64,000 nucleotides of DNA, from positions 32,674,001 to 32,738,000 of the forward strand of contig OZ024751.1 of assembly GCA_964016885.1 (NCBI GenBank). The letters run 5' to 3'. This document shows positions 996-43,733 of the stretch, one piece after another; positions within the stretch are counted from its first letter, which is position 1; the number at the start of each line of letters is the position of its first letter. Both the position numbers and the translations under genes were made by a program. The notes beneath the pieces were generated by a model. The model saw only the letters and a program-made list of their open reading frames with translations. It was not told the origin of the DNA and made no database searches. The stretch is from Eledone cirrhosa. Lineage: Eukaryota.

Positions 996-1104
996 GTATT
1001 CTGACGATTTGGTCAGGTATCGAATGCAATTAAAGTCGAGTCACGTGACTTTTAACAATCAGCAACGTTTAGACACACCGGATTAATGAAACAATTGTTA
1101 ATAC
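996..1104 (+). ncRNA. Type I hammerhead ribozyme motif with long stem II insert
   Basis: Stem I gtatt/aatac; core CTGACGA (1001-1007); stem II ttggtcaggt...accggattaa; GAAA (1088-1091); palindromic caattg; GUU cleavage triplet. Confidence 0.75.
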
Positions 1105-1209
1105 ATTAAATAAACCCTATTGTACAGCCGGCCATGTTATTCCTCTGTAATTTATTTACATTATAATTAACTCTGAAGTCGAGAATCATTCGGTAAATAT
1201 ATATATATT

Positions 1210-1610
1210 TCGTTTCTGAATTTGTTTAGCAAGATTCTTTATCTGAAATCGTGTGTTGAAACCGATATTGTTATACTTTGGGAGGGTCATGTTGCCAATA
1301 AGAAACACACGCACCAGTTGCTTTCACTTCAATTTATTATAATAAATTTATAAATTTAGGAATTTATAAATTTCTGGTTGGTTGGTTGGTTCCACAACCA
1401 GATAGTTGTTTATATATTGTCAAAGTTCTTTCGTCACACATTCTGTGACCTCTTCAGTGACTGGGGATTCTTTTCTTTGTTTTTGTGCCTCTCCTTTGTT
1501 CTGTCCTACGCCATTTTGTTTCTGTGTGTGTGTTGTGTGCTCAGTCTGCGCATGCGCCACATCCGGGTGTCTGTGTGTGTTTATATTTGTTTATTTATTT
1601 ATTTATTTAA
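1210..1610 (-). mobile_element. Penelope-like terminal repeat fragment (family B)
   Basis: Near-identical to 15915-16310 and reverse-complementary to 17340-17605; carries a hammerhead motif. Confidence 0.65.
1419..1461 (-). ncRNA. Minimal hammerhead ribozyme motif
   Basis: Minus strand: gtca CTGAAGA ggtcaca-gaatg-tgtgac GAAA gaac TT tgac. Confidence 0.6.
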
Positions 1611-1963
1611 TTACTAAAATAACAGATTAAAGTTTAAGCAAAGAATCGGTGCTTTCACCCTTAACGGGATCTACTGAAACTAAAAAAATCAATCTGTGAA
1701 CGCAGAAGTAAATATTTCGAAAAACGTTGCAACCGAAAGAAGACAGGAAGACGATACTTTGGTTCGTGGAAACGTTCCCTGGCAAGGACCGGCGAATTAT
1801 ACGCAAAGACAAAACCACGTTTATGGTATAAATGAAGTCGTAGACTAAAATTCTATTTAGGAAACCGAATGATTCTCGACTTCAGAGTTAAGAATAATTA
1901 AGAATAATGTAAATAAATTACAGAGGAATAACATGGTCGGCTGTACAATAGGGTTTATTTAAT

Positions 1964-2055
1964 GTATTAACAATTGTTTCATTAATCTGGTGTGTCTAAA
2001 AGTCACGTGACTCGACTTTAATTGCATTCGATACCTGACCAAATCGTCAGAATAC
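1964..2055 (-). ncRNA. Type I hammerhead ribozyme motif (inverted copy of 996-1104)
   Basis: Minus strand: gtatt CTGACGA ... GAAA caattg TT aatac. Confidence 0.75.
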
Positions 2056-2689
2056 TGGATTACCTTAAACGATATCTTGTTATCTTATATATATATATAT
2101 ATATATATATATATATATATATATATATATATATATATACAGTATATTGTAAGTACCGTTGAATACACCTGTAAAGTTGACCATCTTATACGTTACTGAT
2201 CTTGTCTCATAGACTCAGATACTGTGTCCCGATGCATCACTGATTCTTCGTTTTCCATATATATATATATATATATATATATATATATATATATATATAT
2301 ATATATATATATATATATATATATATATATAAGCATATATATAAACATGTATATAAACATATAAATATATATCCATATATACATATATATATAAATAAAC
2401 ACACACACACGGATGCACACACACGCACGCACACACACACACACACACACACACACACACACACACACACACACACACACACACACACTCACACACATAT
2501 ATAGTGGTAATTAGAGGTCGCACTAACACACCATGGTTCTTCATAGGGTTGTATATGAAAGCACATACGGTATATTTATATACAATAATCATACGAGAGT
2601 CTCGCTATGTATTTTAAAATCAATTTGTGATCAAGTTACAGTTACCTCCTAAGATAGCTGTAACATGATCACATTATCGTGTGTGTCCA

Positions 2690-3545
2690 AGGGCGGTGGA
2701 TTGAAAGTATCGGTAGAGGGTCGAACGCATAGAGTTACGCCCCTTTATGGTCTGAGTTCAAATCCCGCCGAGGTTAACTTTGCCGTTCATCCTTACGGGG
2801 TCGATAAAATAAAGAACCAGTAATACACTGGGATAATTGCTGTGCCAAAAGTAAAAACAATTATCGTGTTTGTCCACTCTGACGGATAGAATCTCTCTCA
2901 CATCATTCAGTGTAGGGAGATGCTTCTAATAATTCAGATTGCGTTGCTGCGATGCAGTCGAAAATTGGATGCATTATTATAGCGTGATTGGCAGTATCGG
3001 TAGAGGGTCGGACGCCATGCTTTGACGCATAGAGTTACATCCCTTGCCATTCTGAGTTCAAATTCCATCGAGGTTAACTTTGCCTTTCATCCTTACGGGG
3101 TCGATAAAATAAAGTACCAGTAATACACTGGGATAATTGCTGGCCTTGTGCCAAAAGTAGAAACAACTATTATAGCGTGTGTATTGGCAGTATCGGTAGA
3201 GGGTTGGACGCCATGCTTTGCAGCAAAGAGTTACGGCCCTTTATGGTCTGAGTTCAAATCCTGCCTTTCATCCTTACGGGGTCGATAAAATAAAGTTCCA
3301 GTAATACACTGGGATAATTGCTGGCCTTGTGCCAAAAGCAGAAAAATTATTATAGCCTGCGTGGCGGATTGGCTGTATCGGTAGAGGATCAGACGCTATG
3401 TTTTGACGCATAGAGTTACGCCCCTTTATGGTTTGATTTCAAATCCTGCCGAAGTTAACTTTGCCTTTAATCCTTACGGGGTCAATAAAATAAAGTACCA
3501 GTAATGTACTGAGTAATTGCCGGCCTTTTGCCAAAAGTAGAAACA
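2690..3545 (+). mobile_element. Four tandem copies of a tRNA-derived SINE
   Basis: Repeated head ggcggtggattggcagtatcggtagag...gagttcaaatcc (A/B-box-like), core aactttgcctttcatccttacggggtcgataaaataaagtaccagt, tail ggccttgtgccaaaagtagaaac. Confidence 0.85.
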
Positions 3546-3743
3546 ATTATTATAGCGTGTATGTGTATATATGTACGTGTGTGTGTGTGCGTGTGTGTGT
3601 ATTTGTGTGTATATGTTTGTGTGTGTGTTTAAACGTGCTTTTTCTTGTTTCTAGGAATGACTAGTGCATAAATCAAATCTCAGACAACTTGACTCAGTTC
3701 AAAGGTAAGCTCTTAAGATCTTGGCAGCATATAAAAACTGAAT

Positions 3744-41186: not shown

Positions 41187-41223
41187 GGACCTGAAGATTG
41201 CGAAAGCATGAAAGTACTTGTTC
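41187..41223 (+). ncRNA. Minimal hammerhead ribozyme motif
   Basis: ggac CTGAAGA t-tgc-gaaa-gca-t GAAA gtac TT gttc; GNRA-capped stem II and palindromic gtac. Confidence 0.62.
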
Positions 41224-41429
41224 AATTAACACTTAACATTTAATATTCTACCATACTATTTCATTCTAATACCATTATAAATTTTAAAGGATTGTAAATA
41301 AAACGAGTAAATCAGACAGTTGGAATTCCTTTTATTAATATAATCTTCTATACATAATCATACACACCCGTGTATATTTATCTATCTATCTATCTATATA
41401 TATATATATATATATATATATATATATAT

Positions 41430-41750
41430 TATCCTGGGTATGACATTAAACTACATCCAGTGACAAGGCTCGAGTTCGGGAGTTCATGAGCTGTGGGGAA
41501 TGTGGAGTTACCCCTTAGTTGTCATAACTCCCAGGTCTGCTCTGGCCCGGAGCAGTGTTACCTGTTATGGCCCCATCTATGGGTGAAATAATAAAAGAAC
41601 CATGTAGTCGATTTAACAGCACTAAGGTTGTCAAGGCTTATGGGCACTCTGAATGTGAGGACAATTCGGACACTGAGAAATTCTTCCCTAGAGCTAAGAA
41701 GACCCCGCCCCGAAAAGAGGCCCGACTCAGTGGTGCCAAACCATAAGGTA
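41430..41750 (+). mobile_element. SINE-like fragment followed by an internally deleted RTE-like element
   Basis: LMGTLNVRT (APE start motif) is fused to a 3' end gaaaagaggcccgac.cagtggtgccaaacc, which also occurs at 42620-42695. Confidence 0.5.
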
Positions 41751-42833
41751 TGCTTTCTCTCTCTCTCTCTCTCTCTCTCTCTCTCTCTCTCTCTCTCTCT
41801 CTCTCTCTCTCTCTCTCTCTCTCTCTCTCGCATACACTTAATGTTAAAAGAAAGGCAAGCTTTGAAGTGACAAATAATTAGATACATTGATACGACGCGT
41901 CGCCCTCATATCATGTATCTGTATGGCTGTCTGTCTAAACTTTCTAAATAAAACACACCCACACCGAACAAGGGAGAGAACCAAATAGTTAAATTATAGA
42001 GTAGCCTAACTTGAGATTTAAATTTTTTCCATTTTTTTCATACATAAATGTTTATGGATCTGTATTTTTGTGTGTGTGGATATATGTATTTATAGATAGG
42101 TATATATAGATATGTATATATAGATAGGTAGATGGACAAGGGTGTCTCACATAGGAGGTTTCCCGGTTGATGTAATGATAGACTCCAGTTCTATCCCGAA
42201 AAACTTGAAATGAAGCAACTGGCTTATTAATACAATGTGCTGCCAGACCTAGGGTTTGATGTTATGACCTTATGTTTATGAGTGCAGCACACTAACCATT
42301 GAAGCACCACCATCACATACTGAACCTACATTAGAACACTACCACACACTACAGCACTACCAGACATTACAACACCGCCATACTACACTACCACCATCAC
42401 ACTACATCACCACCAACACCACCATTCTATATATTCAGATATATATCATATCTACCCCACCTTTAACCCTGGCCCTTTATAACCCCTAAAATCTCTATTT
42501 CAGATATATCGTCATTCCTACGTTACCTCTAAATATGTAACTGCTTCACCACGGCCGTTGTTGTCCCTAATGAAGGACTGGGCTCTGCTACGCAACAGCA
42601 ATGTACCAGATGGTTTTGAGAAATACTTCCCTGGAGCTAAGGAGACCCTGCCACGAAAAGAGGCCCGACCCAGTGGTGCCAAACCATAAGGTATACTTAA
42701 TCTCTCTCTCTCTCTTCTAGACACTTCTATAAGGTCATATAATTGAACAGTGTCATTTCTAAAATGTGAAAAGAAAGGCAATGTTTTCAGTGACATAATT
42801 AGAAAGATATAGATACAACGCCGCACACTCATA

Positions 42834-43000
42834 TCATATATATATATAAAACTGTGTGTGTCTCTCCTCATTTTTGCAAAGTCTATACAAATCCACATTT
42901 CTACTCTGATTGGCTTCAAACTTGCATTTATATATTCCTTGTGGTCTAAAGATATTAACTGCAGCTTTTATTTTTCAATTTTCTGTTTTTAAAGAGGTGT
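42834..43000 (+). mobile_element. Helitron-type 5' terminus
   Basis: a|TCatatatatatataaaactgtg resembles the 5' end of the 28118-29024 Helitron. Confidence 0.5.
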
Positions 43001-43655
43001 TAGGCACCAGTTATCGATCTCCATCGTGCCCTTATAATTGTTTCTACTTTAGGCACAAGGCCAGCAATTACCCAGTACATTACTGGTACTTTATTTTAAC
43101 GACCCCCGTAAGGATGAAAGGCAAAGTTAACCTCTGGCTGTCTGCATAACGACATTGTGATCCATACGTCAGCAATGACGTTAATCTTCGCCACATTCAC
43201 ACACACACGCGCATGCGCAGATATGCATATATATATATATATATATATATATATATATATATACACACATATGTACGTATGTATGTATGTATGTATGTAT
43301 GTATGTGAGTTTCAGAAGATCCCGTTAAGGGTGAAAGCAGCGATTCTTTGCTTAAACTTTAATCTGTTATTTTAATAAATATATATATATATATATATCA
43401 TAATTGAATATAAAAGAAAAACGAACACAGATATATACATGTGTTCAAATAGTAAGGCATGAGATTCGCTAAGGTGAAAATAATACTAACTATAGACAAT
43501 TTAAGAATAAATCAATAAAATAAATACAAACTTGGCTGCTATCTTTAGTGGTGTGAGTTTGTGAGACACGCTAAGTTCAGATACCATGTGCGTTATATAT
43601 ACGCACACTATTCAGTTTTTTAATATACTTAGAAATGTCCATGATAATAATTCTT

Positions 43656-43733
43656 CATCCACTGATGAGCAAGAATTGGTATTCCTCTTCACAATTAATT
43701 TTGCGAAACAGCATTACCAAAGGTGTCTGGGTG
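43656..43733 (+). ncRNA. Type I hammerhead ribozyme motif
   Basis: catcca CTGATGA gcaagaattg...caattaattttgc GAAA ca...tg TC tgggtg (6-bp stem I, GUC). Confidence 0.72.

Follow-up and report, generated by a model that had tools for sequence, protein, structure and literature searches.

Hammerhead ribozyme motifs scattered through a 64,000-nucleotide stretch of the Eledone cirrhosa genome (GCA_964016885.1, contig OZ024751.1, positions 32,674,001 to 32,738,000; hereafter the window) are real folds of type I. Very probably they are the pseudo-LTR (pLTR), or 3' end, of several families of Penelope-like elements (PLEs) that were inserted at (TA)n as short, 5'-truncated copies. Direct support for a PLE origin comes from one motif lying behind a broken open reading frame (ORF) for reverse transcriptase (RT) and GIY-YIG endonuclease that bears the Hydra-clade linker. 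The initial annotation had identified the motifs as Penelope-type minimal type I hammerheads of several families, and this identification stands; its further proposals of a non-autonomous origin, a large share of the DNA and cleavage on both strands were overstated.

A hammerhead-like motif was present, on the strand given, at all 15 positions listed in the initial annotation. We scored the window against block dinucleotide shuffles of itself. A strict descriptor detected 5 motifs compared to shuffle means of 0.02-0.05, and 7 compared to 0.03-0.05 when one mismatch per stem was allowed (60 shuffles per setting), while a compact-stem-III descriptor detected 8 motifs at a score of at least 10 and none in 40 shuffles. 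A minimal-hammerhead descriptor, which is post hoc in that it was tuned once the motifs had been seen and PMC4209133 had been read, gave 13 type I motifs at a score of at least 9 compared to a mean of 0.12 and a maximum of 1 in 60 shuffles, an excess that upholds the earlier identification; the top score in the reversed sequence was 8. Twelve of these 13 strong motifs had been listed before and the thirteenth, 27577(+), had been missed (motifs are named by the position of C3). In all 13, helices I-III are arranged in type I order around a CUGANGA...GAAA...UH core. With the same descriptor, 18283(-) scored 7 (null 0.6 per window) and 29403(+) scored 4 (null 1.65), the latter alone not being above chance. 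41191(+) is shorter than the descriptor permits and was judged by hand; it has a 5-pair stem I, a 3-pair stem II and a palindromic stem III. A relaxed-core scan with two mismatches revealed nothing extra above the null.

Several different standard pairs are found across the families at the first position of helices I, II and III, so the helices have been retained despite sequence change. For family B, 1 of 40 listed variant rows (171 in total) falls inside the motif and converts U.G to C-G; consensus folding of the family A insert gave a two-sided change in 1 of 27 pairs, its three copies being too few. Eight of the 17 candidates, but none of the four family B copies, have a perfectly palindromic A15.1-U16.1 segment. 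Four copies are damaged (13477, 15657, 29403 and 11685; listed below), and in folds predicted with 60-nt flanks only 1457 and 16164 have an ensemble dominated by the hammerhead stems. Rfam hammerhead families gave no match to the window motifs at the gathering score, and no hammerhead was among the best 150 of 290 matches in an Rfam E-value scan. The E-value matches were swamped by microsatellites resembling miRNA models.

The PLE ORF and the family A hammerheads are as follows.
5160..6650, minus strand: Penelope-like ORF, 5'-truncated and frameshifted, with the C-terminal half of RT, thumb, CxCX5C linker and GIY-YIG endonuclease
4963..5073, minus strand: family A hammerhead, C3 5068, GUC site 4968, palindromic stem III, 81-nt helix II region
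996..1104, plus strand: family A hammerhead, C3 1001, GUU site 1099, U.U at the helix II base, element ~790-1196
1964..2055, minus strand: family A hammerhead, C3 2050, site 1969, element ~1864-2230

The 5068(-) motif lies ~90 nt downstream of the ORF remnant, in an element terminating in (TA)n at 4908, and is the only motif found with an RT and C-terminal GIY-YIG ORF upstream. The ORF, read from 6650 to 5160, matches relatives bearing RT, thumb and endonuclease. The Hydra clade is defined by CxCX5C, CxxC, RWK and DKT motifs (PMC8557442), and the window ORF has the CxCX5C linker and the CxxC near the endonuclease end, although the final ~35 endonuclease residues are not recognisable. The region of RWK and DKT has been lost from this copy; among 41 relatives of at least 600 aa, RW[K/R] was found in 19, DK[T/S] in 36, DKG in 3 and CxCX5C in 20. 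Pfam detected GIY-YIG or RT only below threshold in 2 of 10 relatives and nothing in the window ORF. No other PLE ORF was found in the window by tblastn with 160 relatives and profile searches, and with an endonuclease profile the sequence upstream of the 15 further motifs tested gave no significant match (best E 0.05-0.1), nor was a CxH-like stretch upstream of 18283 significant (E 0.1). Since the window has only one PLE ORF, families B and C and the single copies are linked to PLEs by architecture, which makes their assignment putative. Weak PLE protein matches were seen at 20394-20477 (E 0.007, on a strand without a hammerhead), 25940 and 28813-28980.

Hydra-clade PLEs, including Hydra-1_Obim of Octopus bimaculoides (Craig et al. 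2021, PMC8557442), share with the window copies the C-terminal GIY-YIG and CxCX5C linker, (TA)n targets, a hammerhead near the 3' end, a self-complementary stem III of 6-10 nt, and inverted 5'-truncated copies with a one-sided tail. The U.U at the helix II base (1001, 2050 and 41191) is shared by 14 of 26 published Hydra rows, and the layout of 41186..41224 resembles published Hydra-clade motifs. In contrast, the listed Hydra-1_oBim motif is, by eye, unlike every family in the window in sequence. Family A also has an unusually large helix II, with A9 and G12 separated by 63-81 nt, whereas loop 2 of the 26 listed Hydra rows measures 3-10 nt. The 1001 and 2050 copies are arranged tail-to-tail, which is the rarer arrangement and counts against a PLE origin.

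Family B comprises the following copies.
1419..1461, minus strand: hammerhead, C3 1457, site 1423, element 1213-1615 with tail
16126..16168, minus strand: hammerhead, C3 16164, site 16130, element 15918-16400 with tail, head-to-head left arm
17406..17448, plus strand: hammerhead, C3 17410, site 17444, right arm 16402-16453 and 17340-17601, no tail
11682..11721, plus strand: diverged family-B-like hammerhead, C3 11685, 3-pair stem I
7418..7580: fold-back of two family B 3' ends with the ORF start, only the left arm tailed, truncated short of the ribozyme
15406-15455 and 37881-37940: stubs resembling the ends at 7418..7580

In seven places the family B 3' end is an ATG-started frame, of which four stop after codon 6-8 in (TA)n and three continue to codon 22-26. 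Two diverged copies differ at 6 synonymous and 3 non-synonymous codons over 22 (P ~0.003, from one informative pair). For the pLTR, 12 aa have been reported, or 22 when the tail is included (PMC3846280), and family B terminates in what looks like an ORF start. Family B is very abundant in related sequencing runs: a 1-kb test stretch, over which depth peaks on family B, matched 18,728 of 17.1 million contigs in run X1 and 207,974 of 12.5 million reads in run X15. Copies ending at 15970 in (TA)n were found in 163 contigs in X1 and 212 in X7, and others end at 15925. In X1, depth over family B declines as the 5' end is approached, and the cut site is crossed without a step. Stem III of this family is non-palindromic, with a self-duplex at +1.4 kcal/mol, and as modelled it does not fit well with cleavage as a dimer.

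A more specific reading, which we consider doubtful, is that family B is a very high-copy non-autonomous PLE derivative common to related species, with promoter-like motifs, an ORF start and a monomer-folding hammerhead with a non-palindromic stem III, and that family A carries a large structured insert in helix II. Family B would then perhaps be among the hundreds of 'unclassified SINE' families in octopus genomes.

The remaining motifs belong to family C or are single copies.
13021..13090, minus strand: family C1 hammerhead, C3 13082, site 13029, left arm of head-to-head pair 12976-13650
13469..13538, plus strand: family C1 hammerhead, C3 13477, stem III mismatch, right arm, tail to ~13645
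15613..15662, minus strand: family C2 hammerhead, C3 15657, 1-nt deletion, left arm of fold-back 15456-15890, with tail
15792..15846, plus strand: family C2 hammerhead, C3 15800, site 15838, right arm, ending in (TA)n
27569..27631, plus strand: family C-type hammerhead missed earlier, C3 27577, site 27623, ending in (TA)n
35812..36005, minus strand: old tailed family C2 stub keeping GAAA, stem III and the 3' strand, no 5' core
29400..29444, plus strand: decayed hammerhead, C3 29403, U4 changed, 3' end repeated inverted at 27926-27971
41186..41224, plus strand: compact hammerhead, C3 41191, U.U at the helix II base, palindromic stem III
43655..43734, plus strand: hammerhead, C3 43662, 7-pair stem I, GUC site 43727, longer bulged stem III, no (TA)n within 3 kb downstream
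18251..18286, minus strand: U3-A8 core variant, C3 18283, palindromic stem III, 3-pair stem I, (TA)n 16 nt downstream
50..149, plus strand: weak extra candidate with C3 changed (59) and a long helix II, within the range of chance

Published accounts exist of truncated PLEs with scattered minimal hammerheads, of opposite-strand pairs and of the U3-A8 variant (PMC4209133), and of Hydra-clade hammerheads, one of them from Octopus (PMC8557442). The window motifs share with published minimal PLE hammerheads the many, mostly solitary families per genome, opposite-strand pairs 100-700 bp apart, a bulged base before G10.1 (family B), a short helix I and the U3-A8 variant (18283). They differ in the A.A at the centre of stem III of family B, which is not a palindrome, and in a 1x1 mismatch that all five family C copies have at the fourth helix II pair.

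A (TA)5+ tract lies at most 220 nt downstream of 14 of the 17 motifs, compared to 26% of random positions, a threshold chosen post hoc and applied to copies that are not independent; such a tract lies upstream of 4 of 16. The head-to-head pairs 13082/13477, 15657/15800 and 16164/17410 are each tailed on one arm only, which supports a PLE origin since the same layout has been described for PLEs. Insertions beginning precisely at the cut site were not seen among the copies, and the inverted arm of 29403 starts 5 nt upstream of it.

These copies could have arisen as follows. The element protein would nick AT-rich DNA and prime reverse transcription on the element RNA. There would be two alternative start sites within the start of the next ORF, one including the tail and the other not. 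Synthesis would proceed backwards through the hammerhead, usually halting after 100-500 nt, and a second, inverted copy would often be added. The template is likely uncleaved or re-ligated RNA because copies cross the cut site without a drop in depth. While an element is active, its ribozyme would cleave tandem precursor transcripts, if only weakly, and would probably perform best when dimerised via stem III. Now that the copies are solitary or form fold-back stubs, most of them would be inert, and cleavage of host transcripts would be rare.

Families B and C might instead be free-standing non-autonomous retrozymes or SINE-like elements, amplified via self-cleaved circular RNA and doing no more than borrow PLE enzymes, and family B might also be a non-autonomous PLE derivative that has retained the ORF start. 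Neither family has an ORF beside it in the window, family B is extremely abundant in X1 and X15, and a preprint argues for a derivation of animal retrozymes from PLE pLTRs (10.64898/2026.07.22.740005). The window motifs share with animal non-LTR retrozymes (Cervera and de la Pena 2020, PMC7229834) the type I hammerhead, AT-rich context and many copies. We nevertheless judge the proposal improbable. Retrozymes form head-to-tail arrays of 150-450 bp with canonical hammerheads and are expressed as circles (PMC7229834), whereas the window copies are solitary or inverted and 5'-truncated, and masked self-BLAST found no same-strand tandem hammerhead array in the window. Family B copies are also 5'-truncated, may or may not have the tail, and end in an ORF start that looks coding. 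With a PLE ORF next to family A and an apparent ORF start at the end of family B, truncated copies of coding PLEs are a better fit than the non-autonomous elements first proposed. The suggestion that much of the apparently unique DNA derives from such elements was likewise too generous: even when their footprints are drawn generously, they occupy 5,793 of 29,993 non-tandem bases between 996 and 43733 (19%) and 6,162 of 48,089 in the whole window (13%).

It is still less probable, and indeed very unlikely, that the motifs form a host regulatory layer cutting read-through transcripts of both strands. They do lie on both strands (10 plus and 7 minus among the 17 candidates), several cores are intact, and the 8-nt stem III of the A and C types could make a 2-pair hairpin like those of monomer-active invertebrate hammerheads (PMC7229834). 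However, no host gene was found among the ORFs tested in the window, the copies are decaying and fold-back pairing is predicted to bury motifs; folded read-through RNAs of two head-to-head pairs gave hairpins of ~-200 and ~-290 kcal/mol in which the whole ribozyme was paired. An Anolis PLE hammerhead lacks RNA-seq ends at the cut site and is dispensable for insertion in vitro (PMC11167929). The predicted hairpins also argue against the earlier claim that any transcript crossing the region could be self-cleaved, as do the 3.0 kb separating the closest same-strand motifs with matching stem III (5068/2050) and the lack of detectable in vitro cleavage by solitary minimal PLE hammerheads (PMC4209133). 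It is scarcely credible that family B serves the neighbouring R4/Dong-like LINE as its ribozyme: an R4-like fragment (16455-17180) sits between two B copies, but it interrupts the right arm of their fold-back, the arm holding 17410, while B copy 1457 has no R4 neighbour and neither B sequence nor a hammerhead accompanies a longer R4-like copy (47570-48650). Chance resemblance in DNA rich in AT and repeats is just as hard to credit: bare CUGANGA words number 40 compared to 20-23 in shuffles, most without stems, and 29403 and 59 score inside the null, but chance is refuted for the 13 strong motifs by the shuffle comparison and the same helices are kept with different sequences across families.

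Collectively, the probable PLE origin makes the hammerheads here an ordinary feature, scattered PLE hammerheads, opposite-strand pairs and Octopus Hydra-clade elements all being in print; the odd features are the 63-81-nt helix II of family A and the very abundant family B with its non-palindromic helix III. No dedicated study of cephalopod hammerheads was found in the open literature, to which our search was confined; PMC8557442 alone was relevant, and an O. vulgaris repeat paper (PMC13282606) contains no occurrence of 'ribozyme' or 'hammerhead'. Of practical value is that Rfam misses every motif in the window and that the hammerhead is a handy marker for assigning anonymous short repeats to PLE ends. 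The natural variants (long helix II, U.U base, U3-A8 and non-palindromic stem III) could be used to probe the role of the PLE hammerhead in vivo. If the more specific reading of families A and B were true, PLE ends and their fold-back pairs would contribute, on a major scale and throughout the genome, active self-cleaving sites as well as long double-stranded RNA.

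A hammerhead-like motif was found at all 15 coordinates for which the initial annotation had claimed one, in AT-rich, animal-type DNA of which 25% is tandem repeat. Under three increasingly flexible descriptors, motif counts exceeded those of shuffled sequence: 5 or 7 against 0.05 or less, then 8 against 0, then 13 against 0.12, the last descriptor being composed post hoc. These 13 comprise 12 motifs already annotated and 27577(+), which had been missed (handles give the core C3 position and strand). Motif 18283, a U3-A8 variant scoring 7 against a null of 0.6, and the compact, hand-checked 41191 are credible mainly because their layouts match published ones; 29403 is a decayed copy, alone not above chance. 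No motif in the window reached the Rfam gathering level.

Self-comparison and alignment resolved three groups plus single copies.

Hammerhead families in the window (core C3 positions)
Family A: 1001, 2050, 5068; palindromic stem III; A9-G12 spacing 63-81 nt
Family B: 1457, 16164, 17410, diverged 11685; bulged base; helix II of 5-6 pairs
Family C: 13082/13477, 15657/15800, 27577, plus the stub 35812-36005, which lacks a core

Family B has four pairs in helix I (three in 11685) and a non-palindromic stem III of 6 nt; the sole variant within its motif, among 40 of 171 variant rows, is U.G to C-G, and two copies are predicted to form the hammerhead stems even with flanks. Family C has a U/A-rich helix I of at most 8 pairs and a stem III of 8 nt; in each of its five copies the fourth helix II pair is mismatched. 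Between families, the same helices are formed by differing sequences. The tails (optional 3' extensions) of different family C elements share a short conserved stretch at 13585-13615(+), 15515-15560(-) and 35865-35905(-), which could form a hairpin and gives a similar peptide reading in two of the three copies.

A broken ORF at 6650-5160(-) lies ~90 nt upstream of the family A hammerhead at 5068. Its relatives are proteins of 700-900 aa with reverse transcriptase (RT), thumb, cysteine linker and GIY-YIG-type endonuclease. The window copy carries CxCX5C and one CxxC; DK[T/S] was present in 36 of 41 long relatives, DKG in 3 and RW[K/R] in 19. Motifs of these types are the declared marks of the Hydra clade of Penelope-like elements (PLEs) in PMC8557442, whose supplement includes a Hydra family from Octopus bimaculoides and 26 rows of Hydra hammerheads; 14 of these rows have U.U at the helix II base, as do 1001, 2050 and 41191. 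Judged by these marks, at least one hammerhead family is assignable to the Hydra clade. No second PLE ORF was found in the window. Within 20226-20477, two weak profile matches surround an unpaired CUGAUGA at 20284(+): one is to a Hydra-type endonuclease C-terminus (minus strand, E 0.007), the other to the ORF N-terminus (plus strand, not significant).

Of 17 candidates, 14 have a (TA)5+ tract in the 220 nt downstream; upstream, 4 of 16 do, and among random positions 26%. The threshold is post hoc and the copies are mutually related. Three pairs are head-to-head, each with a tail on a single arm, both features being described for PLEs in PMC8557442 and PMC3846280. At seven places family B terminates in a frame opened by ATG, which halts at codon 6-8 in short copies and at codon 22-26 in tailed ones, with 6 synonymous versus 3 non-synonymous codon differences (P about 0.003, a single informative pair). 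For comparison, the pseudo-LTR (pLTR) described in PMC3846280 contains 12 codons, or 22 with tail. Against a PLE reading, no ORF was demonstrated for families B and C in the window, the 1001/2050 pair is tail-to-tail, (TA)n is absent near 43662, and family B stem III is ill-suited to dimer pairing. At 1197-1213 and 15891-15918, family B 3' ends are nested within the (TA)n ending a family A or family C element.

Four sequencing runs were mapped onto 15420-16470; the resulting depths are not copy numbers.

Sequences placed on 15420-16470
X1: 18,728 of 17.1 million contigs
X5: 491 of 8.3 million contigs
X7: 13,265 of 17.6 million contigs
X15: 207,974 of 12.5 million reads

Depth was greatest over family B, whose copies have two 3' ends, one at 15970, running into (TA)n, and one at 15925. 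Toward the 5' end depth in X1 declines, and no depth step was seen at the cut site in these runs. Upstream of the family B hammerhead, at 1480-1580(-), 16200-16275(-) and 17345-17360(+), are short words similar to YY1, NRF1 and ETS sites, which may form a Pol II promoter inside the pLTR.

Much of the unique DNA had been attributed to ribozyme-bearing elements. This was too broad: even generous footprints cover 19% of the non-tandem DNA in the 996..43733 span and 13% of the window. The remainder includes a ~185-bp repeat, LINE fragments with RT, sequences resembling R4/Dong, and parts of Helitrons. The host is probably an octopus-type cephalopod, to judge by the element types given for O. vulgaris in PMC13282606.

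Other features of the window
2689-3560, 19913-22408, 26116-27059, 30660-31235, 43034-43134, 50204-50250: ~185-bp repeat, presumably SINE-like by resemblance; 21 matches, A/B-box-like words, frequently short tandem runs; no tRNA by ARAGORN
16455-17180(-), 47570-48650(+): two related LINE fragments, presumably R4/Dong-like; the first, cut at both ends, splits the right arm of a family B fold-back
36006-36467: degenerate TTAGGG-type array of ~76 units, then a peptide fragment resembling LINE RT
38875-40298(-), 45197-45652(+): fragments of a Helitron-like N-terminal domain and a Pif1 2B domain
59345-60652(+): RT then PHD finger in a single 435-aa frame; LINE-type fragment
50249-51668 / 56170-57587: recent direct duplication, 99.4% over 1.4 kb, including an RT fragment
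53277-54233 / 63064-64000: recent direct duplication, 94% over 0.96 kb
4617-4766, 1615-1687, 7310-7370, 43308-43374: short fold-backs with TA-rich flanks, without hammerhead
10018-10385, 18720-18949, 38103-38156: further short fold-backs of this kind

The hammerhead-less fold-backs are probably either MITEs or 3' ends of PLEs that stop short of the ribozyme, and could supply dsRNA to editing or Dicer.

The window holds no same-strand tandem arrays, and its elements are therefore not retrozymes as defined in PMC7229834 or preprint 10.64898/2026.07.22.740005. The folds, the family A ORF link, ends in (TA)n, inverted pairs and one-sided tails were all observed directly. By analogy with the PLE literature (PMC11167929), the endonuclease would nick AT-rich DNA, reverse transcription would begin at one of two internal start sites, and early truncation would be followed by a second copy in inverted orientation. 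Copies cross the cut site, so the insertion template was likely uncut or re-ligated RNA. This agrees with PMC11167929, in which mutants of an Anolis PLE hammerhead leave insertion unaffected in vitro and no RNA-seq reads end at the cut site. In PMC4209133, no cleavage was found for a solitary minimal motif and dimers cleaved at a low level; the motifs described there include opposite-strand pairs and a U3-A8 variant, as in the window. Read-through RNA over both family C pairs is predicted to form long hairpins that bury the whole ribozyme in pairing. On the other side, monomers of the A and C types could be active to some extent through their 8-nt stem III.

Together, the folds, the PLE architecture and the family A ORF link support the proposal of PLE hammerheads from several families. 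The phenomenon is real yet known; what is new is the families of PLE pseudo-LTR hammerheads.
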